Made by a program: the position numbers and the translations under genes
Source of the DNA: Eledone cirrhosa
Taxonomy: Eukaryota
Direction of reading: 5' to 3'
Length of the DNA: 64,000 nucleotides
Assembly (NCBI GenBank): GCA_964016885.1
Contig: OZ024766.1
Coordinates: 15,004,001-15,068,000, forward strand
In this document: positions 8,971 to 64,000 of the stretch, one piece after another
Position numbering within the stretch: the first letter of the stretch is position 1
Layout of the letters: the number at the start of each line of letters is the position of its first letter
The notes under the pieces: generated by a model
Told to the model about the DNA's origin: nothing
Database searches by the model: none
Seen by the model: the letters and a program-made list of their open reading frames with translations, nothing else

Positions 8971-9076
<106 letters not shown>

Positions 9077-11665: not shown

Positions 11666-11670
11666 CCAAC

Positions 11671-23189: not shown

Positions 23190-26100
23190 TGTCTAATTAC
23201 GGGGGACTAAACCCCAGAATTTGTCTACTATTATTGATGGTCGCTTGTTCAGTTTTCTTCTACGAAATGTAACGTACATATTTCATTTTCTTCTCAATTC
23301 TCCACATTCGGTTCATTCATCTATATATCTTACAATCCCCCAATCGTATTCAAAATTGGCTTTCTATAATTCTGTTCTGTCTCACCGTTGTTCTAAAAAT
23401 AATTCTGCTCCTCGCAAACTACCCCTCCCGCCCCCACTCTCCACCTTATTATTTGGACCAATCACAAGTAAACGACCTATGCTAGCACCTCTGGTTGCTT
23501 TTTCGATATGATGGATGAACTAGGGAATTTCTGGAGAGTCAGAAGAATCTGGACACCCGAAGACAATGCAAAAGATAACGACAAATTCACCTCATGCTGC
23601 CAGACGAAAGGGCAAAGCCCCACCCTCTTTGTTGCAGCCGCGGATGGCCAACATAACCCCAACCCCATCAACCTCACCCCTCCCTGCACCCCACCCACCA
23701 AACGCAATCCAAAACTTCACAGTTGGTACCATGAATGTAGGGACCTTAAAAGGCCGCTCAAACGAGGTTGTAGAAATGCTTGAACGTAAGGAGGTTGATG
23801 TCTGCTGCATCCAAGAGACCAGGTGGAGGGGCGGGTCTGCTAGATTCATTGTGGGTAAAAAACGATGCTATAAGTTTTTCTGGGTGGGCAATGACAATGG
23901 GCTGGGTGGGGTAGGATTCATGTTAGCAGAAAAATGGGTGGATAAGATAATAGAGGTAAATAGAGTAAACGACAGAATAATTAAAATAAGACTTGTTCTA
24001 AATAGAACTACTGTGACGATAATATCTGCGTACGCGCTTCAATCCGGACTGCCTGGCGCTATAAAAGACACTTTCTATGAGACACTGATGCTCGCTACCT
24101 CCCAAATAACTGACAGTGACTATATAATTATTGCTGGCGACCTAAATGGTCACGTTGGACAACATTGTGACGGCTATGATGAAATCCATGGAGGCTATGG
24201 GTTTGGTACTAGAAATGAGGAAGGCTCCAGAATCCTGGAATTCTGTGACGCAAATAACCTAACAATCTGTAACACTAACTTCAAAAAACGAGACAATCAC
24301 TTGATCACCTACAGATCAGGGGAACATACCAGCCAGGTAGATTATATCCTTACCACAAGACGTGACAGAGTGACTGTTGTAAACACTAAATCCCTCCCCC
24401 ATGAAGAATGCACCTCCCAACATAGACTGATAATTAGCGACCTCATAGTCAGGACGAGATGTACTCGACAGCAGAAGAGGACTATCCTCAGGAGAAAAAT
24501 ATGGAAGCTAAAGGACCCCACAGCCAGAAATAAATTTCAAAGCATATTACTTGATGCTTTCGACAGTAAGGAAGAGCATTTAGAGTCGTACAATATAGAG
24601 GAACAGTGGGAATTCCTGAAAGCAAACCTGCTGATGGCGGCAGACGAAGTCTGTGGCCGGAGCAGGCCTATAGGCAGGAGGAGAGTAACATGGTGGTGGG
24701 ACAGTAAGGTGGAGGAGTCGATTAAGGCCAAAAAGCAGGCTTGGAAAGTATGGCGGGATGGGGGAAGTAGAGAAGACTATCAAGTGGCCAGGAGGGAAGC
24801 TAGGAGACAAGTGTACTTCGCAAGAAGGGAAGCAGAGGAAAGAAAGTTCAACCATGTTCTACAACGCGAGGACCAAAAACGTGAGGTGTTCAGGATTGCT
24901 AGACAATGTGTCAAGGAAAACCGTGATATTGTTGGGGAGAAGTGTGTACTTAATGTTGATGGTGTACTTGCCATCACTGACGCTGATAAGAAGGTCGCAT
25001 GGAAGTGTCACTACGAGAGGCTACTAAATGAGGAGAATAAATGGGAGAAGGATAGTCTCCCCCAGATCGATCCAATAGAGGGACCAGCAATGTTAGTTGA
25101 AGGTAGTATAATAAGTAAGGCAATCAAAGATATGAAGACGCGTAAGGCGGCTGGGCCTTCGGAAATAGTTGCTGAGATGCTGAAGGCCTCTGGAATGGTG
25201 GGACACACCATGGTCACCCAGATAGTAAACCAAGTCATACAGAATGGGGTTGTTCCGAAGGACTGGCGTAGCAGCATCATCATTAACTGTTACAAGGGTA
25301 AAGGAGACGCCCTAGATAGGAGTAACTATAGAGGCATTAAATTAATCGACCAGGTCATGAAGGTCACGGAAAAAGTAATAGTGCAACTAATCAGAGAGAG
25401 AATCGATCTAGATGAAATGCAATTCGGGTTTGTGTCAGGCAAAAGTACCACAGACGCTTTTTTCATTGTACGACAACTACAGGAGAAGTACCTAGCTAAA
25501 AGTAAACCCCTATACTTAGCCTTTGTCGACTTGGAGAAAGACTTCGACAGAGTCCCCCGTTCCATTATCTGGTGGGCTCTTAGAAAACTAGGTGTTGATG
25601 AATGGCTTGTGAGAGCTATACCAGCCATGTATAAAGAAAAAGTCAGCAAGGTTAGAATTAACAACGAATATAGTAAAGAGTTTAGCATAAAAGTGGGTGT
25701 TCATCAGGGCTCCGTTCTTAGTCCCCTACTATTTATTATTGCCCTTCAGGCTATAACAGTGGAGTTCAAGACCGGCTGCCCATGGGAACTCCTATACGCA
25801 GATGATCTAACGCTCATAGCTGAATCAATGGCCGAGCTAGAGAAAAAATTCCAAACATGGAAGCACGGCCTAGAATCAAAAGGCCTTAAAATTAACCTAG
25901 CTAAGACTAAAGTTCTAGTTTGTAGGAAAGAAAATAAGGCGCCGGTCCCTTCCGGGAAATGGCCATGCTCAGTGTGTAGGAAAGGCGTAGGTAGAAACTC
26001 CCTTTTATGTCCCAAATGCAAAGTATGGGTGCATAAAAGATGTAGTGGGATCACAGGTAAGCTAACTAAGAACACAGATTTTACATGTGGCCGGTGCTCT

Positions 26101-27093
26101 GGTGCAATAAGTAGCAGCAAGTGCCCACAAAATACTAGCTCTTTCAATTGCGCAGAGAGTTCTATAGAAATAGTGGACAGCTTCCGTTACCTGGGTGACA
26201 AAATCAGCAGTGGGGGAGGGTGCTCTGAAAGTACAGTAGCTAGAGTCAGAACTAGAGAGGAACGAAGCTTGCATGCTCCACTGGATGTGTAATAGTAATA
26301 TACGTGAACAGCAAAGCATAAAGGAACTAAGGAAAAAATTAGAAATAAGAGGGATCAGATGTTGTTTACTCGAGAGAAGGCTACGTTGGTATGGTCACGT
26401 GATGCGCATGAAAGACGACAGCTGTATAGCAAAGTGCACGGCAATAAAGATAGATGGTAGCCACGGAGTAGGCAGACCCAGAAAAACCTGGGACGAGCTG
26501 ATAAGTTCCGACCTCACACACTTACACCTCTCCAAGACAATGTCACTGGACCGAGACCTTTGGCGGTACTCAGTAATAGAGAAGACCCACCTTACCTAAA
26601 TACAAAGTAAAACCCGCCACAGTCAGTAGGCATCTCTAACAAAATACACCCCTGTCCCACCACCCCCACTCCATCCACACCGCCCCTTTCAATGTAAAGT
26701 TATGTTGGTGCCACAACATCCAGGCCGAAACAAATGAGATCGTGTAGGTGTCACGACAAAAAAACACACAGTCCACGCTGTAATGTGGCCGTGTAGGCAA
26801 CACGGTAAAAACCTCCCAGCCCCACACTGTAAATGTGGTTGGTGTTAGGAAGGGCATCCGCTGTAGAAAACCCGCCAGACAGTCCACGCTGTAATGTGGC
26901 CGTGTAGGAAAACACGGTAAAAACTTCACAGCCCCACACTGTAAATGTGGTTGGTGTTAGGAAGGGCATCCAACTGTAGAAAACCCGCCAGACAGTCCTG
27001 TGCGAGCAAGACAACCACTCTTGCCTCAAGTGGGAAAACTCCCGTCCAAACCCATGCAAGCGTGGACCATGGACGTTAAACGATGATGATGAT
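23190..27093 (+). mobile_element. RTE-clade LINE with PHD finger in RT (family B), near full length
   Basis: Single ORF 23566-26292 (908 aa; EN, RT, PHD), broken only by a 152-bp deletion at about 26253. C-terminus in 26273-26599; duplicated 3' UTR segment; (GAT)n tail. Confidence 0.93.
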
Positions 27094-42009: not shown

Positions 42010-43435
42010 TGATGCACATGAAGGATGACATCTGTATAAAAAGGTACAGGGAACTCGAGGCTGTAGGGTGCCTCAAAAGAGGAAGACCTAGGCAGAAGTA
42101 GGATGTAATGACAAAAGGCCAACCTGGCTCAGCTGAACCCTCTCAATGGAGATGACACAGGACTGAGATATCTGGTACTACAACATACAACAAAGGACCA
42201 GAGTGAACCTCACAAGGTGCAAGGCATGGTGCAGCCAATTGGCCTGACATCCCTCATAATGGGACCTCTCAGCTCCCAAATTACGGTTCCCCTGTGAACA
42301 GGGTACAGCAAGGCCAGCTGGCCAGACATTCCCCAAAACAGTGCCACCCAGTTCCACACTGTAAAAGTGGTTGGTACTAGGAAGGGCATCCAACAACTGT
42401 AAAGACACAGCCACTACATAGTCAAAGCATGAGAGAACTGAGAGAGAAACTAGACATAAGAGGGATCAGATGTAGTGTGCAGGAGAGGAGATTGTAGTGG
42501 TATGGGGTGTGTATGGAGGGTGACCGCTGTATAAATATATTTAGGGCTCTCAAAGTTGATGGTAGCTCTGGAAGACTTCGAAGGAAGTGATAAAAGCTGA
42601 CCTCACACAAATTCTCAAAGGAGACGACACAGTATTGAGATCTCTGGATCATGCTGTACTTCAGAAGACCTGCCCCACCTCCCATGTAAAATGATATGAA
42701 ACAAACATGTAGAGTACACACTAATCTGCACCAATCTTCTCCCTACACCTCACCATTCACCCAGTCCACACTGTAATGTGGTTGGCATTAGGAAGGGCAT
42801 CCAGCTGTAGAAACCAAACCAAAATACAGATCCATGTGAACAAGACATGTTCACATGACCTGACATGTTTCATAACATGACACCTTGTCTAACATATCAA
42901 GTGTGAAATAACAGACGTTAAATGATGATGATTATGATGATGATATACACATATATATATATTTGTATGTATATATATGTGTGTGTGTATACAGAAATAA
43001 TATATACACTACTTAATTATATATATATATACAACATATCAAAATAAATCAAATAAATTTAACAAACGACTGAATTTACCAAAATAGAATATTTTATTTA
43101 TTTATAATTTGGTGATAAACAAATATTTGGTAAAAGTAATTCTTCTTTTTCACGCTTTCTTTCCATCCTTTTTCCACACACACACACACATTATATATGT
43201 ATATATATACACACACACACAAGGGTATAAAGTGGTGGTGTAAAGTGATAGAGTTGCTGCCACAATAAAATACACCTTGTTCACTCTGTAAAGTAGTCAT
43301 GAGGGTTCCACAATAAAATGCACCCTGTCCACTCTGTAAAGTGGTTGTCATTGAAAACATCATCCAGCAATGTCTGGTCTTGTTCCATGACAACACAACC
43401 CATCCAGTTAATGCTAGAATGGAACACAGATATAA

Positions 43436-43467: not shown

Positions 43468-43673
43468 CTAGTTTTTCTCTGAATCTAGACAACCAAGAGC
43501 CTCAAAACAATCTGCTGTCTTTAGAGCCTCTTTCAGAGTGGCTATGGTGCATTCTTCTGGCTCACATTTTTCACCCCATCTGCGTAACATATGAAAAGCC
43601 TGTTTCACAACACTCTTAGGATTGTCATGCTCTATTTTGTCAAGTTCAATAGATGGAACCTCTAATTGAATAC
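43468..43673 (-). CDS. Terminal exon of RING-ankyrin-Death gene: Death domain C-terminal part
   Basis: ttttacag acceptor, phase 1; GIQLEVPSIELDKIEHDNPKSVVKQAFHMLRRWGEKCEPEECTIATLKEALKTADCFEALGCLDSEKN*. Confidence 0.85.
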
Positions 43674-44029
43674 CTGTAAAATATAAAACAATAAGAAACC
43701 AATACTACAACAACAATAACAACATTAAACAGATTAGTTATATAAAATATGTATACCACAGGTTGTTGTAAATAACAAAGTAACTAGCTGTAGAGTAATA
43801 GAAATAATTAACATAAAAATTCTAAAATATTGTTCTATGTTTCCAAGGTTACCGACAAAAATAAAGAAGTTGAAGTGAGGAGAAGAAAGAAGAACAAGAT
43901 TAAAGAAAATAGACTTGAGAAAATTATGGCAAAGAAATGGCAGAAGTTTTTGTATTGTCAGAACTGGTGAAATAGTCAGGGTTCTGCCTAAAATCTACCA
44001 AGACATAAATGACAAGTGACAAATATTTC

Positions 44030-45365
44030 CTCATCATCATCATCATCATTTTACATCCTCTTTTCACTGCTTGCAAGGGTGGGATGGGTCCTATTCATCA
44101 TCTCTCCATTTGACATGGTCCTTTGTCATCTACTCTGTGAGCTTCAGCGATCTGAGGTCTGCTCTCACCACCTCTCCCCATATTTTTTGTGGTCTTCATC
44201 TACTGCGTCTTCCTTCCACTGGGATTTCTTGGCACTTCATTACTCAGCAGTCACCCGCCATGCATATCACACATCCATACCAACGCAGTCTTCTCTCCTC
44301 CACGCTACATCTTATCCCTCTTATACACAGTTTTTCTCTCAACTCGTCTATGCTGGGTCATTCACACACATTGACATTGCACATCCAACGGAGCATGCTT
44401 GCTTCATTTCTCTCCGGCCGTCACATTTCCTCTGCAGTTGCTGCCCATTTCTCACTACCATGCAGCATCACACATCTCACACAGCCATCATATAACCGGC
44501 CTTTCGTCTGTAGGGAGAAACCCTTCATTGTCAGCAGAGGAAGCAGCTCCCTAAACTTCTTCCAACTCGTCCTTATTCTAGATACTACGGCCTCGGAACA
44601 CCCTCCTCCCTTACTAATCTGATCACCTAGGTATCAGAAGCTATCAACTACCTCTATAGATCCTACCTGCATTTGAAAAATGTGTCTATCACTGCAATCT
44701 CTGTCAAATTTCCCTGTACATCTACTGCATACGTATTTCTCCCTACCTGTCAGTTTTCCTGCTATCCCACTACATCCCTTGTGTACCCAAGATCTGCATT
44801 GCGTACATTTTATAGAATTTATGCCAACTCCTTTTCTACATATCGAACATGGCGATATCCCTGACAGAATCAGAGTTTGGTCCTCTCTTCTACTTATAAA
44901 CACTTTTGTCTTAGCTAGGTTCCCTCTCAGTCTTCTTGATTCCAACTACTGTTTCCATAGCCAGAATTTATTCTCTAGCTCCTCTACTGATTCTGCTATA
45001 AGAACCAGATCATCAGCATAGAGAAGTTCCCATGGACAGCAAGTCTTAAACTCCTCTGTTATGGCTTGGAGGACTATAATGAACAAGAGCGGACTGAGGA
45101 CCGAACCCTGATGTACACCTACACATATCTGGAATTCCTTACTAAACTCCATTCCTACTCTCACTTTACTGACAGCACCCCTGTACATAACTTGGACTGT
45201 CCTCACAAGCCATTCCCCTACACCTAGTTTCCTTAAGGACCACCAGATGACAGATCGGGGTTCTCTATCAAAGGCCTTCTCTAGGTCAACAAAAGCTAAG
45301 TATAGTGGCTTATTCTTCTCTAAGAACCTGTCTTGTAGTTGTCTCACTAAGCAGAGGGCATCCTT
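44030..45365 (-). mobile_element. RTE-PHD LINE (family C), intronic, decayed
   Basis: RT motifs; CSICRKGVGINSIKCTQCRSWVHKGC...CSRC; (TGA)n tail. Confidence 0.88.
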
Positions 45366-45999
45366 GCTGCTAAATTTAATGGACATGTTGAGTAGCACGA
45401 AGATGACTCTTTTGGAGTACATGATGGCTAGAGGTATGGCTTGAGGGATCAAGACTCCTACAGTTCTGTGGTGTAAATGACTTCAAGATATCAGCCAGTC
45501 ATTTGATCAGGTAGACATACAAGCTAGATTAACTTTATTCTCATCAGAAAACAAATAGACAGATGGTTGTGAATATTAAATCTGTTTCCAGAGAAGGAAG
45601 CGTTTGGTAGAGAGTGTGGACAAAGGAAGACCATAACCTTAACAATAAGACTACACCATCTCATAAGACAAAGATGACTGAAGAACGAAAGAGTAACAAT
45701 CTCTAGGAATAATGTAGGGTGGTCACACCTGGAACACCCTCCATTATAAATCTGCAGATCATGGCAGAACCGAGACTAAATAACAATAACAACCTATCTG
45801 TAGATTGAATGTTTCAATAAAAACAAACAAAAACATTCCCATTAACTCACATGTTTACCCCAATACACCAACAGATTTTTATTCCCTGTTTTAGAAGACA
45901 ATATTAGTTATATTGTGTCTTCTAATTTATTCATTTTTACCAATTCAGTTAAAAGTAAACTTTATAGAAATCAACAAGATACTGTAATCTTATACTCAC

Positions 46000-46071
46000 C
46001 AACTGCATACCAATTTTCCACTAACAGTCCTGCTACCTTCCACAGGACTTTCTCATTCGGCTTTTGAGACC
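46000..46071 (-). CDS. Death domain N-terminal exon
   Basis: 72 bp, phase 1-1, ttttcag acceptor and gtgagt donor; SQKPNEKVLWKVAGLLVENWYAV. Confidence 0.82.
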
Positions 46072-47028
46072 CTGAAAAAATATTTCCAAGTTTTTTCATT
46101 TTACTGTAAAGATTTTCTATTCCTGTTTATAATCTATATTTTATATTTTCAGACATTCCTATAATCAGAAGTCAACTAGTGATCACAATGGCTTTAGTCA
46201 ATATTTTCTCTTCTTGTTATATCAGGTTATCTGAGTATTTAGACCCACAACAAAATATATTAAACTTTATAAATATTTTCTATCTATAAAAACATCTTAT
46301 ATATTCTAACAATGTTGTAATTATCACATTCCACTATCAGCTGATTATACATTTGTTTTTCTCATAGCTTTGTCTTTCACTTATGCCAAATCTACAATAT
46401 AGCAACACTGTCCTCTCCTCTCTGTATTTTACTAATAAATATTCTGTTTATTTTCTTCTTAATTCTAATATCAGCCAAGTTGGTTATCAAAGACCTAACA
46501 ACAAATTCATGATAGCCGACATGAAATAGGAGTAGATACACCTGCTTTCCTTGAGAAAGGTTGATGTTGGCAATCTTTAGTGTAAACTGACCACATCTGT
46601 GTTCACCAGAATGTCATCTGATTCATGTAATATTTACAAATATTTACATGTCATGTGTCCTCCATAATGATACAGGATCTTATCGGTGAGCACTGATTAT
46701 TCTATACAGGTGAGAAGGAAAGTGATAACAGGTGTCCTAAAACACTGTACACTTACACAAATCCTCATTAGCTCCCTTTAACAAGTCATCTCTACATTAA
46801 TGCAGTGAAAATATCTGAAAAGGATCCATGAAATGACCCCAACATTATAAATTATCTCCTACAGACCCCTTATATAAATAAATCATAGTTTCTCAAATCT
46901 TTGCTGACCTCTCCATCAATACAATGGACATCAGTAGCTGGAGAAGCCAACTACCTGAAAATTTGAGGAAGTAGAAGTTACACCTGTCTTTTAGACATCT
47001 GTCAGTTCTAACAATGAGTGTTCCAATT

Positions 47029-49025
47029 GTTTGAATAACAGAACAGTTTACTCATGTAATTAAGGTGCAAATGGCTGAGTATTCCATAGACATGTACACC
47101 CATAGCGTAATTCTCAGGGAGATTCAGTATGGCACAGTGCGTGACAAAGCTGGTCCTTTTAATTACAGGTACAGTCCATCTTGTATTATAGTGAGAGTGA
47201 CTGAGTATTCCACAGACATATGTTCTCTTAACGTGATTCTTAGGGAGATTCAGTGATATGTTGTATGTGATATAGCTGGCCCATTGAATTACAGTAACAA
47301 TAACGGTCACCATTATTATAATTCTCAGGGAGATTCAGCATAACAAAGTATGAAACAAAGCTGGTCTTTTGAATTACAAATACAACTCATTTTCCCATCT
47401 AAGTAGACTGAAGTAACATGAAATAAACTGTCTTGCTCAAAGATACAATATGTTCCTGGGAATTGAACTCAGAACCTTATGATCATGAGACAAACACACT
47501 AACCACTAAGTCATGAATGGAAATATACAGACAGATTATCAAATAATTACTTACTAGATCCATCCATGGATTTATTGGTGGCTTTATTAACCTTACATAG
47601 GTGACATACAGATCTGTAAAAGGAAATAAAGATACAACTCACCAACATTAATTTACACCAAATATTACATTGTATACAAGTTTACAGAGATTATGTGTGA
47701 AGGGCACAACAACCTCTCTAGTATTGGTGACATGATAAAATACAACCAGTACACTCTGTAATGTGGTTGCTAATAGGAAGGGCTTCCTGTCATACAAAAC
47801 TTTCCAAACAAAGGATAGAGAGGATTCTGTAGTGGTTTCAAAGACATGACAACATCCCTAGTGCTGGTGCCATGATTAAATCAGCAGTGCCTTTCATGAT
47901 GATGCTGATGATGATTTATAATAAAAGGTGGGATTTGAACTCAGAACGTTCAGGGCCATAACTCTATGCTGCAAAGCATGGTGTGTGACGCTCTACTGAT
48001 ACTGCCAATCCATAATCAATAATAATAATGAAAATTATTGTGTACAATGCTCAGGTGCAATACAACTCATCAAAGGTTCATGTATTGTACATAGAGTAAT
48101 GTAGAAATATCAGGAAAGTGAACAGTGATTGAGTCATGATATACACACACATGCGTGCATGTATGGAGGTGAGGATATCAGGTGTAGTGTTGGAGAATTT
48201 CAGGAAGGATGGAGGTGTTAAAGGATGCAGTGTCCTGACAGCTAACAACTGATGCAGGTAGTTGGTTCCATGCTTCAGTAACTCTGAGCATGAAAAGATG
48301 TTTCTGAAAGTCATGGGGTCTGTACTGTTTTCCTGCTATTTCTTGGCTTAAAGCAGAAATCAGTTGTCAAACTTCCACAACTTCTGTATTGAGGGTCTAT
48401 TTTTTGTTGTTGTTATTGATGTTCTTCAACAAGAATGGTAGGGGAAGACATGGTAGTTGGTTTGTGTTGTTGTTCAACAGCAATGGTATAGGAAGATATA
48501 CAGGCCAGGGACTGAAAGGACCAATTTGGTAGCTGCACCTTTTCCTAGAGTCCATCCATCATCGAAATATGGTGTCTCTTTTTTTGACCTGGGATCTTTG
48601 GAAAGTTTATGGCACATTGAAGACAGAGAGAAACATGACATTTACCACATTGAATCTATTTTGGAAATAGTTCTTGGGTTCGGTACATAGATGACAGACG
48701 TGATTTTCCTGGCAATCTTCTATTTTGGGACAGTGAACAGTTTTATTACACACCTCTCATCTATGGATGTCACCATAGCAATTATGTTCTGTCTGTCCAT
48801 CCATACAATACAACAATAGGTAAACAAATAGATATGTCTAAGTATAACACACTTGTTAAGGAGATAAATAAAATATATTTTCTTTCTGTTTTCCCATTCT
48901 ACGTGTGTGTGTATATAAAAAGATCTACAGATGTATATATAATTAAGAGATGTATATAGGCTAGAAATGTAGTCTATGTCCAGAGTTTATAATGTAGGTA
49001 CGATAGTTACTATAGTTTCTCACAC
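47029..49025. repeat. Intragenic segmental duplication, copy 1 (copy 2 at 58264-60183)
   Basis: About 1.6 kb of direct, highly similar sequence including a RING exon and its upstream intron. Confidence 0.92.
47555..47613 (-). CDS. RING-remnant exon (in-frame deletion)
   Basis: 59 bp, phase 2-1, tttacag acceptor and gtaagt donor; SVCHLCKVNKATNKSMDGS; paralog of 58426-58784. Confidence 0.72.
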
Positions 49026-49582
49026 ATGAAATAGTAGGATATGTTGTTGTTTAGAGAATTTGGGATGTACATGCAGTGATCCCTATAGTGATTCATACGA
49101 GACAGGGATTTATTTTCATTCATGATGTCTACACCTTGTTTGTTGGTCACCTTCAATTTACTTTGTTAAATGATGTTATATTAAAAATAGTTCTACTAGC
49201 CAGGCAATAGTGAAGATATTTGCCATAATAAATATTGTAATCCATGTGAAATGTGGTAAAAGGGTAGTTTGCAGTGATAGAATTATGTTTAGATAGGAGA
49301 GCCGAGATCATACATCTTTACATTGATCTTGTGTTATTCATTTGAAGTTGTCAGCATTTTACAGAGTGTACTGGGTGTATTTTATTGTGAAAACAGCTCC
49401 ACCACAATTAACAATAATAATAATGATGATTACATCAGTAAGTATATTTATTAAGTTACATTATTAAAAAGACAACTTAACGATGACCCATGGAGGGATT
49501 TTGACATTAATGACTGAATAAAAAACAAACATTATTGAGTAAAAGAAACAAATGTTGATATTCCAGATCATTGTTAACTTAC

Positions 49583-50136
49583 TGTTCAACTGTTTCTCCT
49601 ACAGCTCTGTCACCTTCGTTAGGAACAGGGCTGACATGTGACAACAACTCCACTATTTCAGAGTGATCTCTATCGTTGGCCAGTTGTAGAGCTGAATGAC
49701 CACACTTATTCTTCACATTCACATCTATTGTCGACATTTCTAACAATATTTTCACACACTCTATTGCTTCCATCCCACTTCTACAGGCCCGATGTAGTGG
49801 GGTTTCACCATCAACATTCACAACATTCACATCTATTGTCGACTGTGACAACAACATTTTCACAGCCTCTATCTCTCTCTCACTACAGGCCAGATGTAGT
49901 GGGGTGTTATCATTATCATTCACAACATTCACATCCACTGTTGACAGTGACAATAGCATTTTCACAGCCCCTATCTCTCCCCCACCACTACAGGCCCAGT
50001 GTAGTGGGGTGTCACCGTCACAATCCACAACATTCATATCAGCTCCACAATCTACCAACATTGTCAATATGTCTAAATTCCCGAGATATGCAGCAATATG
50101 TAAAGGTGCTCGATTAAGTTTATTTTGTTGATTGAT
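49583..50136 (-). CDS. Ankyrin-repeat exon (5 repeats)
   Basis: Phase 0-2, ttttcag acceptor and gtaagt donor; APLHIAA, TPLHWAC, TPLHLAC, TPLHRAC, SALQLA. Confidence 0.92.
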
Positions 50137-50489
50137 CTGAAAATGTAAAAATATATTTATATATGGTGGGTGTGAGAGTGAAGGGGAGAGTGTGTAGTAA
50201 GAGAGAGAGAGGGGGAGTGGAGGTATGGGGAGAGAATTATAAACAGACACACACATACACATATTATAAACAGACACACTTAGAAAGCATATTACATACA
50301 TACACGATAGGGGACTGTGATAAAGTATAGAAAACAGTGGACAGTGTTTGCTACACCTGTCTTACTCATACATATAAATGTATACACACATACATATATG
50401 TTTGTGTATGTAATAATTATTTGCTCTAATGAGTCTGTTTATATATGTGTAGATGTGTGTGTATGTAATAATTCATTCAAATATGGAAA

Positions 50490-50880
50490 TGAAGCTTTCA
50501 TACCATGAGTTGACCTGCATCTGAGTGAAACAGACCTACCCTTCAATATGAGCAGACAGCAGTTCCCTGTGATACCAGTTTTTGCCATCACCATAAACAT
50601 ATCACAAGGACTGAGCTTCAAAATGTTGGTATTTACTTGCCAGCTCCCGTATTTAGTCAGACCCAGCTTTATGTGGCTTTAAGTTGTACAAGAAGGAAGG
50701 AAAACTTTAAAATTCTTTTGAAGGAAACAAGCAGCCAGGGCATGTTTGTTGCAGAAAGATTTTTCACGAAAAAATTTTGTAATAGAAGAATTATTAAACT
50801 AAAAACTTGGTCTTGTACACTTTTTATATGTAAAATACTACAATTAGCCATCATTTTTGACGGCACGGGGCCAGCAAGTA
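50490..50880 (+). mobile_element. Helitron 3' remnant (PIF1-like helicase C-terminus)
   Basis: RQQFPVIPVFAITINISQG...VFSQTQLYVALS; degenerate GC hairpin near 50862-50875. Confidence 0.7.
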
Positions 50881-50899
50881 TATATATATATATATTTAT

Positions 50900-51313
50900 A
50901 TATATATAAATGAAAATATCTGTCTGTATGCAGTCTATGCATTTCCATCAAATTTTGTTCAAATTTGATACATAGGCTATTTAGCTCCCAGATCATGTCA
51001 ACATATAGTTTAAATCCTGCTGTCCCCTAAAATAGCAGCAGAGTTCTGGGGTTATTTAAAGACAGTCTTTCATGACATTGGTGAAGTTGGAGAGAGCCGT
51101 GGTAGCAGTAAGAGTAGAGACAACAGTGACAGTAGGAGTAAGGTGTGTGACATCATAAGATAGACGCTACAGAAGAGTAATAGCATACAGTTGAGAAGGG
51201 AGATAATCAATTGGACAAACTTGGTGGTATTTCGTTTTGAAAGAACATTTTTTGAGAGAGAGAGAGAGAACATGAGAGAGAGAGAGATAGAGAGAGAGAG
51301 CGAGAGAGTAGAG

Positions 51314-51362
<49 letters not shown>

Positions 51363-53050
51363 ATGCGTGAGAGACATATAATTATAGAGATTTGCCAAAA
51401 CACAAAATACCAATATTACTATATCTCTAAATTATATTTTGTATAGATCCAATAGAATTGCTCTCAGAAACAGACCATCAACAAATTCATTGTTCACAAC
51501 TCCTGGAGCTGCTTTAAGATATCATCCATCCCATTTGACTAAAAATCATAATTCTGTCCAAATTGGTGTGCTCAGGCGGTAAAGTAAGATTACCAGCACT
51601 ACCAGCTACTCCTCAACATCTTATGGATATTCTGGAAGGCACTCCCATCCAGTCAAAGGATTTTCTAAACAATATTAGATTCTGCATTTCAAATGACATC
51701 ATTTGGAAAGGGGGAGAGATGTTGAATGTTGGCCTGGAATTAAGAGAGATGATGCACTTAGACGGGTCTATATTCATTTCATGTTAAAACTCCCTCTAAA
51801 AGTTGTAAAAGAATCTGAAACATTCAACATTTCCAAAGGCTCAGCATTGGCAACAGCTCTCCAAAGAACTTGCTTCATTGTTTGGGATGAGTGCACTATG
51901 TCACATCGTGGAGTTCTAGATGTACTTGACCATACCCTCCAAAACATAAAAAACAATAGCATGCTCATGGGAGGAGTAACAGTTCTTTTTGCAGGAGATT
52001 TCTGTCAAATGTTGCCAGTTATATCCAAAGGAACACAAGCTGATGAGGTCAATGCATGCTTTAAAAAATCATACCTTTGGAGACATGTGAAAAAACTTCA
52101 CCTTACAAACAACATGAGAGTACATCTACAAGATGATCATACAGCTGGTGAATTGTGAGAGGAGCTTCTTAAGATTGGTAATGAGATATTAACATTCAGC
52201 TACATGGAATTACATGTGATCGAATGGTACTTTCTCTTAATGATCTTATGGATAAAGTATTTCCTAATTTATCTGTCAATTACACTGATATAAACTGGCT
52301 ATATGAAAAAGTTATACTGGCTCCAACTAATGAAATGATTGATAAACTCAATCATGAACTTCTTCAAAAGTTAACACATACATCAAAAATGATTTTGCAA
52401 TCAACTCACACATCAGTCAATCAAGTTCAGGCTGTTCAATACCCTGTTGAATTTCTGAACACACTTAAACCCACTGGGATGCCACAGCATAACTTGACAC
52501 TAAAGCTGGGTGCTCCCATTATGTTGCTTAGGAATCTTTACCTACCTAGCCTGTGTAATGAAACTCACTTAATTGTTACTTACCATGAAGCCCCATGTCC
52601 TAGAGGCAACAATCATAACAGGTAGTCACAAAGGAGAAAATGTTTTTATTCTAAGAATTCCTCTCATACCTACAGCTGTTCCATTTGAATTTAAAAAACT
52701 TCAGTGTCCAGTCAAACTAACTTTTGTTATCTCAATTAACAAATCTCAGGGTCAATCCCTCAAGGTAGTTGGACTTGATCTCTCTACTACATGTTTCAAC
52801 CATGGCCAACTCTATGTTGGTTGCTCGAGAGTTGAAAGCAACAACAATTTATTCATTTGGACGCCAACAAAAAATTACACAATGAATATTGTTTACCCTG
52901 AGGTGCTTCAAGATTGACAGATTTTCATTTCTAAATTCTTTTACCCTTAATATTTTGATATTTTAAATAAAATATAGGTGTTTTGAAATAATTATGAGAA
53001 AAAAAAATCTGCATATTTATTGTTCACTAATCAGCAGTAACCTGGTAGAT
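50900..53050 (+). mobile_element. Decayed Helitron with RepHel fragments
   Basis: CSGGKVRLP..FLNNIR (N-terminal), IVWDECTM, FAGDFCQMLPV, ILAPTN, SINKSQGQSL, HGQLYVGCSRV; stops and frameshifts; ends approximate. Confidence 0.82.
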
Positions 53051-53663
53051 AGATATACAGATAAATAGAGTGATAGTGAGACATAGGTAGCTAGACAGAC
53101 AGATAGATATATAGATTGCCATAGATAGGTGGATATTATAGATAAATAGAGTGATAGTGAGACATAGGTAGCTAGACAGACAGATAGATATATAGATTGC
53201 CATGGATAGGTAGGTGGATATTATAGATAAATTGATACATAGATTGATAAATATACAATGATTTGGAAACATTTTCAGTATTTATCAATAGTGATGGTCA
53301 TCATCATCATCATCATCATTTTACGTCCACTTTTCCCTGCTTGCAAGGGTGGGACAGGAACTGATTCTGGCTTGATTTCTACAGCTGGATGCCCTTCCTA
53401 ATACCAACCTCATTTACAGTGAGTGCTGGGTGCTTTTTTGCCATGGCACCTCCACGACCACTTTACAGTGTGGGCTGGGTGCTTTTTTGCCATGGCACCT
53501 CCACGACCACTTTACAGTGGAATGATAGGGACCCCAGTCCTTTCATCTCATTTCTACAGCTGAGTAAACTGGAGCAATGTGAAATAAAGTGTCTTGCTCA
53601 AGGAAACATTGAACAATAATCAATAGAATCAGACAAATCTACAGAGTATATATGTTGACCCAC

Positions 53664-53811
53664 CTTAATAGCAGGTGTGTTAATTAACAACTGTGCAATA
53701 GCTGTACACCTGTTCTCAATGGCTGTGTAGAGGAGAGTGTCCCCTTCTTTATTCTGACTATTTACATCCCCTCCAGAGGACAGCAAGGATTTCACCTCTT
53801 CATAGTTTTTT
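53664..53811 (-). CDS. Ankyrin-repeat exon
   Basis: 148 bp, phase 2-0; KNYEEVKSLLSSGGDVNSQNKEGDTLLYTAIENRCTAIAQLLINTPAIK. Confidence 0.88.
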
Positions 53812-54099
53812 CTGAAAGTAGTAGAAATAAATACAAATACACATATATGAAGGCACATGGTTTAGTGGTTAGTGTGTTCTACTGAAGATCATAAGGTTGT
53901 GAGTTTGATTCCTGGGGATGGCTTGTGTCCTTGAGCAAGACACTTTATTACATGATGATCCAGTCTAATCAGCTAGCAAAACTGAGTTGTACCAGTAATA
54001 CAAAGGGTCAGCCTTGTTAATCTGCTTATCCTTGAGAACTACAATAAAGGTACACATCCATGTCTGTAAAGTGGTTGGTGATAGGAAGGGCATCCAGAC

Positions 54100-54545
54100 C
54101 AGGATACTGGAATAGTCTAGCACCCTCATCTAGGAGAATAAACTAATACATTAGTAAGGCCTAGTGATGGTGAGGCTGAGATGCTGAAAAAGCCAAGCAC
54201 CTTCACCGAGGAGCATCAAGTGATACATCAGTAAAGCATGGTGATGGTGAAACTAAGATACTGCAATAGCCAAGTACCCTCACCTATGAGTATCAACTGA
54301 TATTTCAATAAAGCCTGGTGATGGTGAGGCTGAGATACTGGAATAGCCAAGCACTTTTACATAAGAGCACCATGAGATACATCAGTAAAGCCAGGTGATG
54401 GTGAGACTGAGATACTGGAATAACCAAGCTCTCTCACCAGCGAGTATCAACTGGTATGACCGTAAGACCTGGTGATGGTGAGGCTGAGATGCTGGAATAG
54501 CCAAGCAGCCTCACCACCAGGAACATCACCTGATACATTGGTAAG
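54100..54545. repeat. About 77-bp degenerate tandem repeat, 5-6 copies
   Basis: ggtgatggtgaggctgagatactggaatagccaag recurring. Confidence 0.85.
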
Positions 54546-54650
54546 TGAAGCCACCAACAAGAACAAGAGCCTCATTGTCAATGGCTACCAACTCCCCCAT
54601 GAAAGTATGAAATGAATCAAACAGAATAGAGATAATTGTTGTAAACTTAC

Positions 54651-54741
54651 TGTGAAACAGCTTCATGTATTCGTGGGTTACCAGTTCTGTCTTCCTTTAC
54701 CTGTAAACCAGTTGCTGCTCCACGTAATTTCTCCATTTTAG
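54651..54741 (-). CDS. Linker and first ankyrin half-repeat exon
   Basis: 91 bp, phase 1-2, aacag acceptor and gtaagt donor; KMEKLRGAATGLQVKEDRTGNPRIHEAVS, continuing in frame into QKNYEEV. Confidence 0.78.
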
Positions 54742-54762
54742 CTGTTAATATATATATATATA

Positions 54763-55735
54763 TCATCATCATTTAACGTCCATCTTCCACGCTAGCATGG
54801 GTTGGACGGTTTTGTTTCACTTAAGGCAAGATTTGTCGGGAGACCGTGTCCTGCTCATACAGAACTGTCCCTGGCAGGTTTTCTATGGCTGGATGCCCTT
54901 CCTAACACCAACCACATTTACAGTGTGGACTGGGAGCCTTTTTACCGTGTCTCCTACATGACCACTTTACAATGTGGACTGGGAGCTCTTTGTCGTGTCA
55001 CCAACATGACCACTTTACAGTGGTCCTCCCATTTCTATGGGAGGACAGAGTAGGGTGTGTGGAGTGGGGTGTATATTGGGTTAAGAGGTACCTACTGACT
55101 GTAGGTTTAAGTTTGTATGCCAGAGAAAGCAGGTCTCCTGTACAACTGCATAGTACCAAAGATCTCGATCCAGTGATATTGTCTTAGAGAGGTTTAAGTG
55201 AACAAGGTCAGTTTTTACAGCTCGTCCCAGGTTTTCCTTGGTCTACCCACTCCGTAGCTTCCATCAATGTTCATTGCCCTGCACTTTTTTATACAGCTGT
55301 TGTCCTCCATACGCATCACATGACCATACCAACACAATCTCCTCTCCAGAACACAACATTTGACACCTCTTATGCTTAGTCTCTCTCTCAATTCGTTTAT
55401 GCTTTGCCATTCGCTCACATTACTATTACACATCCATCGGAGCATGCAAGCTTCATTTCTTTCTAATCTACACAAGCCTTCAACACACGACACCCAAGTC
55501 TCACTACCATGTAACATTGCTCTTCGTATACAAGCATCATACAATCTGCCTATCACTTTTAGAAAAAAGCCTGTTGCCGCCAACAGCGGTATTAGCTCTC
55601 TGAACTTTTTCCATCCCGTTTTAACTCTGGCTACTTCAATTTCAGAGCACCCTCCACTACTGCTGATTTTGTCACCCAGTTAACGGAAAGTGTCTACTAT
55701 TTCTATAGAACCATCTGGGCAGTTGAAATGAGATA
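54763..55735 (-). mobile_element. RTE LINE 3' fragment related to family B
   Basis: ORF 55215-55583 (LYDACIRRAMLHGSETW...WYGHV...GRPRKTW); family B-like 3' UTR. Confidence 0.85.
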
Positions 55736-56391
55736 GAATCCAGTAGTTCTATAGAAATCATCATCATCAGTTTTACGTCCATTCTTCCACACTAGCATGG
55801 GTTAGACAGATTGTCCTGCTGTGGGCGATGTTAGGTCAGGTGACCTTGTCTTGCTCATACGGGAACTGATTTTGGCTTGATTTCTACAGCTGGATGTCCA
55901 TATATATATATATATATATATATATGCAAGTGTATTTTATTAAATGTAACTTAAAATTAAAACCTTCAATGTATGATTTTTGCCTATTAAAAATAATCTA
56001 AAAAAAGGGGACACCATTGCCTATGTGACTCAAACTGACATTTGCCTTATACAGGACATCTTTACTTACCAGTTACAATCGACATATATATATATGGAGG
56101 CATATGGCTTAGTGGTTAGAGCATTGGCCTTGCAATCGAAAGGTTGTGAGTTCAATTCTCAGTGATGTGTTGTTTCCTTGAGCAAGACACTTTATTTCAG
56201 ATTGCTCCAGTTTACTCAGCTGTAGAAATGAGATGATAGGGACTATCATTTTTGCCACAGCAAAAAAGCACCCAGCACTCACTGTAAATCAGGTTGGTGT
56301 AAGGAAGGGCATCCAGCTGTAGAAATCAAGCCAGAATCAGTTCCCGTCCCACCCTTGCAAGCAGGGAAAATGCGGACGTAAAATGAAATGA

Positions 56392-56434
<43 letters not shown>

Positions 56435-58425
56435 TACATACAAGGGTGAGTCAAAATATAATGCAATTTTTGTCATAGAAAACAACATCATACTTCGGGA
56501 CTGGGCATATCAAAAGATCAAAATAACGGAGGTAAACTTTGTTCCATCATTATGCTTTTCTTATTTTTCTGTTCAAGTTCTGATGAGATCATAGCTGTGG
56601 AATAATGGTTATCATCCGAAATATATATAACAGGGACTATGTATAAACAAAGTTAATTTTAACCTATTGACTTACACTTCTTGTTTATATATATGTGGAG
56701 GATATATAAAACAGGAAACAAGAAGGTGTAAATAGCAAGGGGCATAAATATGAGGGAAGGGAGATAATTTGACAACATAACATAACTAGTATTTAATAGA
56801 ATTTAATGTTGAAATACTAAGGAGATATTTAAAGAAAAAGGAAGAGAGGTGTTAGTATTATACTTAATGGTAGAATAAAAAGTGAATATAGGAGTGAAAA
56901 GAAATAGCATGCAAAATTAATGGAGAGGGTTAATATAGGAGGAATCATTAAAATTGAAATAATTAAGGGGAGTGATGTATATTAAGACAATGGAGGAAAG
57001 ATAAATAAAAGTATATTATAAAATAAAGGGTAAGAAAATGATAGAAGAAAAGAAAAGTAAGATTATCATGTTTAATGTCCAGGCTATGTATACGAGAGTG
57101 TAAGAGGTGAAATTATTAGGTAAATGTTCCTCAAGTGATTAATTTAAGTGTAGAGTTAAGGGGAGGTCTAGGTTGAGGGTCATACATAGGTGTGAAGAAA
57201 TAGAGTGAAGAAGAAAAGGAAAGACTAAAGAGATGAAAGGAAAATAGGTGTTAATAAGTTATGCTAAGGTAAAAGGAGATTCAGCAATAGGAATACTAAT
57301 TATAAAGATAAAAATAAAATATAGATAGAAATTAAAATATTTTAAAAGAAGGGGTTTATAAAGATATGGTCAAAGAGTATAAAATTAATCACAAAAGGGG
57401 AAAAGGCCTAGATAGGGAGGGTTAATACTAATAAGAAATAGGATAGAGGGATATTATAGGAAATGTATTATAAATAAATAATTATAATTCTCACAACTAA
57501 TCACCTATCTCTCCTCCTTGGTTAGTTGGTACACATAATATTGATATATATATATATAATGCAAGTATACAAACAGCAATAAATGTAAAGTAACTGAGAG
57601 AGACGCTGGGTATAAGAGGGATCAGATGCAGTATGCTAGAGTGGAGAATGTGTTGGTTTGGTCATGTGATGTATATGAAGGACAGCAGTTGTATAAAAAG
57701 GTATAAAAAGGTACAGGATGGTCAAAATTGATGGAAGCTATGAAATAGGAAGACCCAGGAAGACCTGGGATAAGGTGATAAAAGCTGACCTTGCACACTT
57801 GCACCTCTCAAAGACAATGACACAGGATAGAGATCACTGGTGTTAAGCAGTAATATACAATACACACTTTGCCATGTCCACAGACTCATACATCTAGTAG
57901 GCACCTCTTACTGTACCCACTCCTCTCCACACTACCTGTACACTGTGAATAAAACATATCCAGCCCACACTGTAAATGGTTGTGTAAGAGCCACAACAAA
58001 AAGCACCCAGCACACATTGTAAATGTGGTTGGCATTAGGAGGGACATCCAGCTGTAGAAGCCTAGCCAGAAACAGTTCTATGTGAGTAAAACACGGTCAC
58101 CTGACGCTACTTGCATCAAATGGGACAACCCGTCTAGCCCATGCTAGCATGAAAAATGGACAGTAAACGATAAAAATTTGTTTTTGTACAAGAAAACACA
58201 AATATAGGTGAAGATAGAATAAAAGTTCAAATATAAGATTTATGACTATAAACCATTTAGACAGGTTTGAATAACAGAACAGCTTACTCATAAAATTAAG
58301 GTGCAAAAGATACAATATGTTCCTGGGAATTGAACTGGGAATTGAACTTATGATCATGAGACAAACACACTAACCACTAAGTCATGAATGGAAATATACA
58401 GACAGATTATCAAATAATTACTTAC

Positions 58426-58784
58426 TAAATTCATCCACCGTACATACAGTCATTCCACACTGTGGACAATGTTCAATTGTGGAACAACATTTTCCACAAG
58501 CCACTTTATGTGGACATGGAGTGGATGTATTGGTGGCTTTATTAATCTGACATGGAGTGGATGTATTGGTGGCTTTCTTAATCTGACATGGAGTGGATGT
58601 ATTGGTGGCTTTCTTAATCTGACATGGAGTGGATGTATTGGTGGCTTTATTAATCTGACATGGAGTGGATGTATTGGTGGCTTTCTTAATCTGACATGGA
58701 GTGGATGTATTGGTGGCTTTCTTAATCTGACATGGAGTGGATGTATTGGTGGCTTTCTTAACCTTACATGGGGGACATACAGAT
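58426..58784 (-). CDS. RING-HC (IAP/Mind-bomb-type) exon with seven 12-aa repeats
   Basis: 359 bp, phase 2-1; SVCPPC-(xxxKATNTSTPC)x7-PHKVACGKCCSTIEHCPQC. Confidence 0.82.
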
Positions 58785-60207
58785 CTGTAAAAGAAAATAA
58801 AGATAAAACTCACAAACGACATTAATTTACACCAAATATTACATTGTATACAAGTTTACAGAGAAGGGTACAACAACCTCTCTAGTATTGGTGACATGAT
58901 AAAATACAACCAGTACACTCTGTAATGTGGTTGGTAATAGGAAGGGCTTCCTGTCATACAAAACTTTCCAAACAAAGGATAGAAAGGATTCTGTAGTGGT
59001 TTCAAAGACATGACAACATCCCTAGTGCTGGTGCCATGATTAAATCAGCAGTGCCTTTCATGATGATGATGATGCTGATTTATAATAAAAGGTGGGATTT
59101 GAACTCATAACGTTCAGGGCCATAACTCTATGCTGCAAAGCATGGTGTGTGACACTCTACTGATACTGTCAATCCATAATAATAATGAAAATTATTGTGT
59201 ACAATGCTCAGGTGCAATACAACTCATCAAAGGTTCATGTATTGTACATAGAGTAATGTAGAAATATCAGGAAAGTGAACAGTGATTGAGTCAAGATACA
59301 CACACACATGCGTGCATGTATGGAGGTGAGGATATCAGGTGTAGTGTTGGAGCATTTCAGGAAGGATGGAGGTGTTAAAGGATGCAGTGTCCTGACAGCT
59401 AACAACTGATGCAGGTAGTTGGTTCCATGCTTCAGTAACTCTGAGCATGAAAAGATGTTTCTGAAAGTCATGGGGTCTGTACTGTTTTCCTGCTATTTCT
59501 TGGCTTAAAGCAGAAATCAGTTGTCAAACTTCCACAACTTCTGTATTGAGGGTCTATTTTTTGTTGTTGTTGTTGATGTTCTTCAACAGTAATGGTAGGG
59601 GAAGACATGGTAGTTGGTTTGTGTTGTTGTTCAACAGCAATGGTATAGGAAGACACACAGGCCAGGGACTGAAAGGACCAATTTGGTAGCTGCACCTTTT
59701 CCTAGAGTCCATCCATCATCGAAATATGGTGTCTCTTTTTTTGACCTGGGATCTTTGGAATGTTTATGGCACATTGACGACAGAGAGAAACGTGACATTT
59801 ACCACATTGAATCTATTTTGGAAATAGTTCTTGGGTTCGGTACATAGATGACAGACGTGATTTTCCTGGCAATCTTCTATTTTGGGACAGAGAACAGTTT
59901 TATTACACACCCCTCATCTATGGATGTCACCATAGCAATTATGTTCTGTCTGTCCATCCATACAATACAACAATAGGTAAACAAATAGATATGTCTAAGT
60001 ATAACACACTTGTTAAGGAGATCAATAAAATATATTTTCTTTCTGTTTTCCTATTCTACGTGTGTGTGTATATAAAAAGATCTACACATGTATATATAAT
60101 TAAGAGATGTATATAGGCTAGAAATGAAGTCTATGTCCAGTGTTTATAATGTAGGTACGATAGTTACTATAGTTTCTCACACACTAAACAGGATTTCCTT
60201 GCACTTT

Positions 60208-60433
60208 CTGTGTGTATGTATATATATATGTGTGTGTGTGTATATATTTATGTGTGTGTGTGTGTGTATCTACATATATATGTGTGTGTATATCTAGGTA
60301 TATATATATATATGTGTGTGTATCTACATATATATATATATATATATATATATGGGTGTGTGTATGTGTGTGTATCTACATATATATATATATATAGATA
60401 CACACACACACCCATATATATATATATGTAGAT

Positions 60434-60474
<41 letters not shown>

Positions 60475-63400
60475 GACACACACATACACATATATATATA
60501 TATGTGTGTGTGTGTGATCTACATATATATGTGTGTATGTGTGTGTGTATCTACATATATACATATATGTATGTGTGTGTGTGTGTGTGTATCTACATAT
60601 ATGTGTGTGTGTGTGTGTATATCTACATATATGTGTGTGTGTGTGTATCTACATATATATATATGTGTGTGTGTGTATCTACATATGGGTGTGTGTGTGT
60701 ATCTACATATCTACATACATATGTGTGTGTGTGTACATATGTGTGTGTGTGTATCTACATACATGTATGTGTGTGTCTGTGTGTGTATCTACATGTGTGT
60801 GTGTGTGTCTACATATGTGTGTGTGTATCTACGTATATATGTGTGTGTGTGTCTGTGTGTATCTACATATGTGTGTGTGTGTATATCTACATATATATGT
60901 GTGTGCGTGTGTGTATCTACATATATATGTGTGTGTGTGTGTATCTACATACATATATGTGTGTGTGTGTGTATCTACATACATATGTGTGTGTGTGTAT
61001 ATCTACATATATGTGTGTGTGTGTATCTACATATATATGTGTGTGTGTATCTACATATGTGTATGTGTGTGTATCTATATATATGTGTGTGTGTGTGTAT
61101 CTACATATGTGTGTGTGTGTGTATCTACATATATGTGTGTGTGTGTATCTACATATATATGTGTGTATGTGTGTATATCTACATATATGTGTGTGTGTGT
61201 GTATCTACATATATATGTGTGTGTGTGTATATCTACATATATGTGTGTGTGTGTATCTACATATGTGTGTGTGTGTGTGTGTATCTACATATGTGTGTGT
61301 GTGTATCTACATGTGTGTGTGTGTATCTACATATATATGTGTGTGTGTGTGTATATCTACATATATGTGTGTGTGTGTGTGTGTATCTACATATGGGTGT
61401 GTGTGTGTGTATCTACATATCTACATATATATGTGTGTGTGTGTATCTACATACATATGTGTGTGTGTGTGTGCATATGTGTGTGTGTGTGTGTGTACAT
61501 ATGTGTGTGTGTGTATCTACATACATATATGTGTGTGTGTGTGTACATATGTGTGTGTGTGTATCTACATACATATGTGTGTGTGTGTGTGTATCTACAT
61601 ATATGTGTGTGTGTGTACATGTGTGTGTGTATCTACATACATATATGTGTGTGTGTGTGTGTGTATCTACATATATGTGTGTGTGTGTGTATCTACATAT
61701 ATGTGTGTGTGTGTGTATCTACATATGTGTGTGTTTGTATCTACATATATATGTGTGTGTGTGTGTGTGTATCTACATATATGTGTGTGTGTATCCACAT
61801 GTGTGTGTGTATCTACATATATGTGTGTGTGTATCTACATATGTGTGTGTGTGTATATCTACATATATATGTGTGTGTGTGTATATCTACATATGTGTGT
61901 GTGTGTATATCTACATATATGTGTGTGTGTGTAACTACATATATATGTGTGTATGTGTGTATATCTACATATATGTGTGTGTGTGTATCTACATATATGT
62001 GTGTGTGTGTGTATCTACATATGTGTGTGTGTGTATCTACATATGTGTGTGTGTATCTACATATGTGTGTGTGTATCTACATACATATGTGTGTGTGTGT
62101 ATATCTACATATATGTGTGTGTGTGTATCTACATATATGTGTGTGTGTGTATCTACATATGTGTATGTGTGTGTATCTATATATATGTGTGTGTGTGTGT
62201 ATCTACATATGTGTGTGTGTGTGTATCTACATATATGTGTGTGTGTGTATCTACATATATATGTGTGTATGTGTGTATATCTACATATATGTGTGTGTGT
62301 GTGTATCTACATATATATGTGTGTGTGTGTATATCTACATATATGTGTGTGTGTGTATCTACATATGTGTGTGTGTGTGTGTGTATCTACATATGTGTGT
62401 GTGTGTATCTACATATGTGTGTGTGTGTATCTACATATATATGTGTGTGTGTGTGTATATCTACATATATGTGTGTGTGTGTGTGTGTATCTACATAGGG
62501 GTGTGTGTGTGTGTATCTACATATCTACATATATATGTGTGTGTGTATCTACATACATATGTGTGTGTGTGTGTGCATATGTGTGTGTGTGTGTGTGTAC
62601 ATATGTGTGTGTGTGTGTATCTACATATATGTGTGTGTGTGTGTACATATGTGTGTGTGTGTATCTACATACATGTGTGTGTGTGTGTGTATCTACATAT
62701 ATGTGTGTGTGTGTACATGTGTGTGTGTATCTACATACATATATGTGTGTGTGTGTGTGTGTATCTACATATATGTGTGTGTGTGTGTATCTACATATAT
62801 GTGTGTGTGTGTATCTACATATGTGTGTGTGTGTATCTACATATATATGTGTGTGTGTGTGTGTGTATCTACATATATGTGTGTGTATCCACATGTGTGT
62901 GTGTATCTACATATATGTGTGTGTGTATCTACATATGTGTGTGTGTGTATATCTACATATATATGTGTGTGTGTGTATATCTACATATGTGTGTGTGTGT
63001 ATATCTACATATATGTGTGTGTGTGTAACTACATATATATGTGTGTATGTGTGTATATCTACATATATGTGTGTGTGTGTATCTACATATATGTGTGTGT
63101 GTGTGTATCTACATATGTGTGTGTGTGTATCTACATATGTGTGTGTGTATCTACATATGTGTGTGTGTGTATCTACATATATGTGTGTGTGTATCTATAT
63201 ATGTGTGTTTGTGTATCTACATATGTGTGTGTGTGTATCTACATATATATGTGTGTGTGTATCTACATATGTGTGTGTGTGTGTGTGTATCTATATATGT
63301 GTGTGTGTGTATCAACATATATATGTGTGTGTGTATCTACATATGTGTGTGTGTGTGTATCTACATATGTGTGTGTGTGTATCTACATATATATGTGTGT

Positions 63401-64000
63401 GTGTATCTACATGTGTGTGTGTGTGTATATCTACATATATGTGTGTGTGTGTGTGTGTATCTACATACATGTGTGTGTGTGTGTGTATCTACATATATTT
63501 GTGTGTGTGTGTACATATGTGTGTGTGTGTATCTACATATATGTGTGTGTGTACATATGTGTGTGTGTATCTACATACATATATGTGTGTGTGTGTGTGT
63601 GTATCTACATATATATGTGTGTGTGTGTATCTACATATATATGTGTGTGTGTGTATCCACATGTGTGTGTGTATCTACATATATGTGTGTGTGTGTATCC
63701 ACATGTGTGTGTGTGTGTATCTACATATATATGTGTGTGTGTGTGTATCCACACGTGTTTGTGTATCTACATATATGTGTGTGTGTGTATCTACATATGT
63801 GTGTGTGTGTATATCTACATATATATGTGTGTGTGTGTATATCTACATATGTGTGTGTGTGTATATCTACATATATGTGTGTGTGTGTGTATATCTACAT
63901 ATATGTGTGTGTGTGTGTGTATCTACATATGGGTGTGTGTGTATCTACATATCTACATATATATGTGTGTGTGTGTGTGTGTATCTACATATATGTGTGT
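60208..64000. repeat. Compound (TG)n-ATCTACAT-(AT)n minisatellite, more than 3.7 kb, runs off the window
   Basis: Repeating gtgtgtgtatctacatatat units of variable length. Confidence 0.97.

Follow-up and report, generated by a model that had tools for sequence, protein, structure and literature searches.

The stretch of Eledone cirrhosa DNA analysed here (contig OZ024766.1; the window, 64,000 nucleotides) raises the question of whether the ankyrin, RING and Death-domain exons lying among its repeats belong to one gene, and whether the product of such a gene would be a ubiquitin ligase or a death-fold adaptor. An earlier note had proposed a seven-exon minus-strand gene with a RING, seven ankyrin repeats, a RING remnant and a terminal Death domain, and as an observation this is confirmed. 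All seven exons are preceded by AG and, apart from exon 7, followed by GT, their phases are compatible (2-1, 1-2, 2-0, 0-2, 2-1, 1-1 and 1-stop for exons 1 to 7), and the spliced sequence forms a single frame that stays open over 495 codons to the TAG ending exon 7. The splicing of the chain is predicted; a stop-to-stop list of open reading frames of at least 90 amino acids contains only exons 1 and 4 of the seven.

Exon 1: 58426..58784, minus strand, duplicated RING exon with a candidate join to exon 2
Exon 2: 54651..54741, minus strand, start of ankyrin repeat 1, the weakest exon
Exon 3: 53664..53811, minus strand, ankyrin repeats 1-2 (Pfam Ank_2, 29.6 bits)
Exon 4: 49583..50136, minus strand, ankyrin repeats 3-7
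Exon 5: 47555..47613, minus strand, in-frame RING stub with two of the eight ligands
Exon 6: 46000..46071, minus strand, 72 nt, start of the Death domain (24 codons)
Exon 7: 43468..43673, minus strand, remainder of the Death domain and stop (Pfam Death, 23.7 bits)
First AATAAA downstream of the stop: 43097..43102, minus strand, candidate polyadenylation signal

A Pfam scan covered six of the seven exons, exon 5 being too short to scan. It found strong ankyrin matches in exons 3 and 4 and a Death match above the cut-off in exon 7, with the RING of exon 1 sub-threshold and no match for exons 2 and 6. Under a crude splice filter with an acceptor threshold of 10 pyrimidines in 15, exon 5 is the sole open 2-to-1-phase candidate between exons 4 and 6, and exons 2 and 6 fail (7/15 and 9/15, respectively). 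Exon 6 is accepted despite this failure because it is rescued by homology. Exon 2, which tblastn and the profile of the family described below likewise left unmatched, is weakly supported, through the frame and through its completion of the first ankyrin repeat; an in-frame ATG at 54736 within it opens a 374-codon frame, and a form of that length could start there. In a search of sequencing runs, exon 4 was matched in four runs of one study, with no RNA run among the matches listed.

The terminal Death domain passes the Pfam cut-off of 22.6 bits and retains its core residues. A Death-domain search with exon 7 across 1.84 billion representatives returned 44 clusters, a figure that includes isoforms and partial models and is not a gene count, and the 30 clusters whose source was looked up come from Octopus (27), Argonauta (1), Branchiostoma (1) and Pinctada (1). 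The closest relatives form a family in Octopus vulgaris, O. sinensis and O. bimaculoides whose members carry the automatic names "MIB2-like" or "E3 ubiquitin-protein ligase MIB1/MIB2-like" (e.g., XP_029652081.1, XP_014782788.1 and CAI9744078.1). By Pfam, a RING is present in 21 of the 44 clusters and the full set of ankyrin, RING and Death in 10, and the ankyrins precede the RING in all 12 relatives that have both. The lineage restriction suspected from the sequence is upheld; the fusion itself, however, is not peculiar to the Eledone gene, since proteins of an Octopus family are ordinarily built in this way. An intact C3HC4 pattern occurs in 15 of 46 database proteins, many of the 46 being partial, and neither the MZM (MIB_HERC2, ZZ) nor REP was found in the six scanned exons, upstream of which more of the gene may lie outside the window, or, at E 0.01, in 48 database proteins that include many partial models. 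A family-profile protein search recovered only two proteins of at least 484 residues, both from O. vulgaris. The three best structural neighbours of a full-length family member are Mind bomb clusters (TM 0.58-0.60), and a PDB search with the member P0142 gave ankyrin-region matches only among the best 60 of 420.

The Death domain of the Eledone gene shares 37-49% identity with the listed relatives. A tree of 42 rows, built after five of the 46 database proteins lacking a 60-column match had been left out, places it on a long branch among Octopus rows, in no starred or otherwise firm group. Other searches with exon 7 gave nothing among 15 candidates (word-indexed protein search) or Death clusters with scores under 0.9, to be taken as leads only (Atlas). 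When the family Death domain is compared with solved structures by profile, RIPK1 comes first (E 3e-12), followed by ankyrin-3, CRADD, PIDD and FADD. By fold RIPK1 is again first, narrowly (E 2e-3, with CRADD at 3.6e-3), and with no match better than 1e-3 the fold models suggest no clear winner; such likeness is in any case not the same as binding.

The exon structure points to the same family. Exons 2-7 are collinear with family members in alignment and keep the order of ankyrin, RING exon and Death, with exon 1 falling outside it. The 72 nt of exon 6 equal a 24-residue cassette that separates the O. sinensis isoforms P0185 and P0143 at the same place, and isoform pairs of the family break immediately on either side of the RING and around this first Death exon, as in the Eledone gene. 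The exon 2/3 and 3/4 borders correspond to points at which family models begin or change, as judged from protein models rather than genomic DNA. Its terminal Death domain is of the family type, with the split after an exon of 24 codons, and it has no intact C3HC4 RING with a first loop of 10-11 residues, exon 5 holding two of eight ligands and exon 1 a loop of 83 residues. It is thus likely, on the evidence of sequence, a diverged derivative of the family rather than a canonical member, the origin of its ankyrins being a separate matter.

A simple motif count of repeat starts agrees with the proposed seven ankyrin repeats. Three of the repeats 3-7 in exon 4 form a 102-bp internal tandem repeat (49715-50040), among which dN/dS is about 0.6, 0.6 and 1.8, mixed values that are uninformative. 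The best score of the ankyrins is 112 bits against 13 family members and 137 bits (median 99) against 120 generic ankyrin proteins, the scores of the latter being inflated by their selection for resemblance to exon 4. The repeats show no detectable preference for the family over ankyrin proteins at large; all three family controls scored better against the family. Long generic ankyrin proteins dominated a word-indexed protein search with exon 4. It is accordingly conceivable, though rather doubtful, that the ankyrin exons came from an unrelated gene and were shuffled in front of family RING and Death exons, a proposal that concerns origin only and is compatible with the explanation preferred below. 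The last ankyrin block of the family is missing from the Eledone gene and the triplication in exon 4 is the gene's own, both of which would suit such shuffling; the linker repeats of the family are absent as well. Exons 2-4 nevertheless align in order with the early repeats of the family, their borders correspond as described, and the ankyrins run straight into the RING in the family models P0136 and P0159 as well.

The two RING exons lie in duplicated segments, listed here with the repeats in and beside them.

Duplicated segment A: 58265..60191, minus strand, exon 1 flanked by 1.4 kb of intron on its upstream side and about 160 bp on the other
Duplicated segment B: 47029..49034, minus strand, holds exon 5 at the RING position of the family
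Minisatellite in exon 1: 58513..58771, minus strand, 36-bp unit in 7.2 copies, bounded by two Pro-Cys codon pairs
Satellite array: 60209..64000, no strand assigned, runs to the last position of the window and conceals the 5′ end

Positions 58738-60191 and 47567-49034 are 96% identical over 1471 columns, the match resumes downstream of the exon in two short blocks at 93%, and the upstream intron shows 32 differences over 1404 aligned bases (2.3%). On this alignment, exon 1 is a recent copy of exon 5, taken together with 1.4 kb of intron. Gene conversion within the duplicate was considered, but the longest identical run (P 0.14) lends it no support. The RING-first order is seen in none of the 12 relatives with both domains and would be a by-product of the local duplication, the form carrying it being predicted and unproven. 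The interpretation in the earlier note therefore stands in part: Mind bomb-like ankyrins and a RING are joined to a Death domain, but the origin of exon 1 as a copy had been overlooked.

Both copies are damaged. Exon 1 measures 359 nt and exon 5 59 nt, of which difference 216 nt are six extra 36-bp units and 84 nt the RING core. In exon 5 the core was lost in frame with six of the eight zinc ligands, and the 19-residue stub between ankyrins and Death, recognised from the start as a RING remnant, retains the first two cysteines. Exon 5 is needed to reach the Death domain, because the frame ends at a stop within exon 6 when it is skipped. In exon 1 all eight C3HC4 ligands are kept, but the minisatellite has lengthened loop 1, between the second and third ligands, from 11 to 83 residues, a proline occupies the conserved hydrophobic position before Cys2, and the Pfam zf-C3HC4_3 score of 15.7 bits is below the cut-off of 27. 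The 15 intact RINGs of the family have a loop 1 of 10-11 residues and a Leu, Trp, Tyr or Phe before Cys2, at a position which we take to touch the E2 enzyme. An AlphaFold model of exon 1 has a mean pLDDT of 46, only the last 28 residues reaching about 70-80, so that this low-confidence model says nothing firm about folding. Since one RING has lost its core and the second is deformed, ligase activity appears unlikely, and of the two roles first suggested that of a death-fold adaptor is plausible whereas that of a ligase is weakened.

An active ligase would nonetheless follow if exon 1 belonged to the same mRNA through tandem duplication of an ankyrin-RING module extending past the satellite, its RING working and the second RING having decayed once replaced. 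Exon 1 does have eight ligands, both splice sites, an open frame and an in-phase join to exon 2, and redundancy would account for the loss in exon 5. The satellite begins about 18 bp past the upstream end of segment A, so the duplicate may run further upstream. This reading is quite unlikely in view of the loop, the proline and the order of domains in the relatives, and the join itself depends on exon 2. Nor does the intact repeat frame of exon 1 argue for function, since two Pro-Cys codon pairs 36 bp apart keep the repeat length in frame without selection. In MIB2, moreover, the second RING is needed for cFLIP ubiquitylation and the first, ankyrin-adjacent RING is dispensable (available text of PMC7815719); by its position, the single RING of the Octopus family would be the equivalent of the latter.

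The same damage would also suit a recent copy now in decay, within a family that evolves by birth and death, its frame being open by luck. Both RING copies were impaired within some 2.3% of intron divergence, and of the exon bases common to both copies 6/59 differ, all six altering the residue, against 32/1404 in the intron (Fisher P 0.003, a post hoc comparison). Neither tblastn nor the profile revealed a family-type first exon in the 64-kb window, or any other family-type exon that had been overlooked. We consider such decay decidedly improbable: 495 codons lack a stop or frameshift despite wide divergence from relatives, the deletion in exon 5 is in frame (one chance in three), the Death-domain core is retained, and a RING-less ankyrin-Death model is also present in O. 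vulgaris (P0140). As the earlier note had supposed, the 5′ end of the gene probably lies outside the window, behind the satellite.

The explanation that we favour, at slightly better than even confidence, is that exons 2-7 encode an ankyrin-stub-Death frame, a likely offshoot of a Mind bomb-derived family expanded in Octopus, and that the product is a ligase-dead Death-domain adaptor or decoy. The frame, its domains, the duplication of the RING exon and the damage to both copies are observed. A recent duplication would have been followed by loss of the core from the native RING exon, which may have been retained because the frame reaches the Death domain only through it, and the upstream copy, exon 1, would either be skipped or add a crippled RING. 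The ankyrins would scaffold partners, and the Death domain is predicted to dock on assemblies of the RIPK1, FADD or CRADD type. Molluscs, a cephalopod among them, are reported to have FADD and CRADD, and in the same report PIDD and TRADD were not detected (PMC11463336). For Octopus maya, there is a citation of RIPK1 (PMC8917759). Human MIB2 binds RIPK1 through its MZM region, ubiquitylates it and restrains death (PMC5912950), and the Death domain may take over this recruiting task. Without a working RING, the protein would then compete with RING-intact paralogs and ubiquitylate nothing. A broader scenario, which is speculative and on the whole unlikely, is that octopods rebuilt Mind bomb as a Death-domain-targeted regulator, a RIPK1-like Death domain replacing the substrate-binding front end, that the family expanded where bivalves expanded BIR-DD-RING IAPs, and that duplication and breakage of the RING exon turns ligases into decoys, the present locus being such a switch in progress.

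The Octopus ankyrin-RING-Death family is the more valuable lead and holds most of the interest. A full-text literature search, covering mostly open-access papers, showed no description of it among its listings; it is apparently undescribed, its proteins being already in NCBI under automatic names, and it may figure in orthogroup tables published with cephalopod genomes. Cell-death and immune signalling in octopuses, which have few IAP genes, is thinly mapped, and an expanded and mis-named family in which a Death domain is coupled to ankyrins and a RING of the Mind bomb type offers candidate regulators of death-receptor complexes, possibly convergent with the DD-RING IAPs of bivalves. The Eledone copy is a dated example of duplication and loss of a RING exon, a process that could yield ligase-dead decoys.

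Ankyrin-RING ligases and ankyrin-Death proteins are both already known, and the Eledone gene can be set beside each. The Octopus MIB1/MIB2-like proteins share with it the order of ankyrin, RING and Death and the exon borders that flank the RING and divide the Death domain; the Eledone gene differs in having a stub for its native RING and an extra, damaged RING copy upstream. Mind bomb proteins MIB1 and MIB2 have in common an ankyrin array followed by a zf-C3HC4_3-type RING, and MIB2 models are the best structural match of one Octopus family member, a likeness between models. For MIB2, the available text of PMC7815719 lists N-terminal MIB/ZZ domains, nine ankyrins and two RINGs, and no Death domain. 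In contrast, the exons scanned here contain no MZM, the RINGs are broken, and the seven ankyrins in the window, to which more could be added upstream, lead through a RING stub to a terminal Death domain where Mind bomb ends in two or more intact RINGs. The BIRC2/3-like IAPs of oysters (BIR-BIR-DD-RING), already known DD-RING proteins, are likewise an expanded mollusc family that combines a Death domain with an IAP-type RING, but have BIRs in place of ankyrins and the Death domain before the RING (available text of PMC8917759); Pfam found no BIR in the scanned exons or the relatives, likeness to XIAP/cIAP is confined to the RING half (E 0.007-0.3), and octopuses have the fewest IAP genes among ten molluscs, 10 and 11, in the same source. 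Finally, the ANKDD1A-like proteins, whose cluster name occurs among the Atlas feature neighbours of P0142 (0.92), have ankyrins and a terminal Death domain, which is the layout that the Eledone product would have without a RING, whereas the Eledone gene carries a RING stub between the two and its Death domain is nearest to that of the Octopus family.

The two copies of the duplicated RING segment, the upstream one carrying exon 1 and the other the RING stub of exon 5, differ by an insertion or deletion, listed here with the helicase frames in intron 3.

47072-47438: about 370 bp following exon 5, missing after exon 1 in the comparison of the two segment copies
51697-52917, plus strand: PIF1 helicase in three broken reading frames, inside intron 3 (Pfam PIF1, 116 bits)

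Since the missing stretch has a shared 4-base end, the sequence suggests that a microhomology deletion removed it from the upstream copy. The PIF1 frames we take to be a likely Helitron remnant. Further repeats and exons lie elsewhere in the window.

867-3083, 4126-5978, 13109-18784 and 23524-26292: several LINE-type reverse-transcriptase frames, class assigned by eye
6364-6852: long inverted repeat flanking an AT microsatellite (97%)
7882-9027: long inverted repeat flanking an AT microsatellite (93%)
about 9210-9345 and about 11670-11810, minus strand: EGF-like exons sharing a cysteine pattern

The LINE-type copies are 93-97% alike, and some of their frames run on at length with no stop, reaching 1045 and 922 codons in the window's ORF list. 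The EGF-like exons probably represent a separate multi-EGF gene, downstream of the ankyrin-Death gene on the same strand.

Among the Octopus ankyrin-RING-Death relatives, five O. bimaculoides proteins (P0161, P0132, P0122, P0127 and P0186) have an identical longest-contig size on record, 10,083,081, a hint that their genes form a single tandem cluster. One O. sinensis family cluster holds 14 isoforms, and in many members (P0123, P0126, P0131, P0138, P0183) the RING-Death linker is repetitive, being made of short alternative cassettes.
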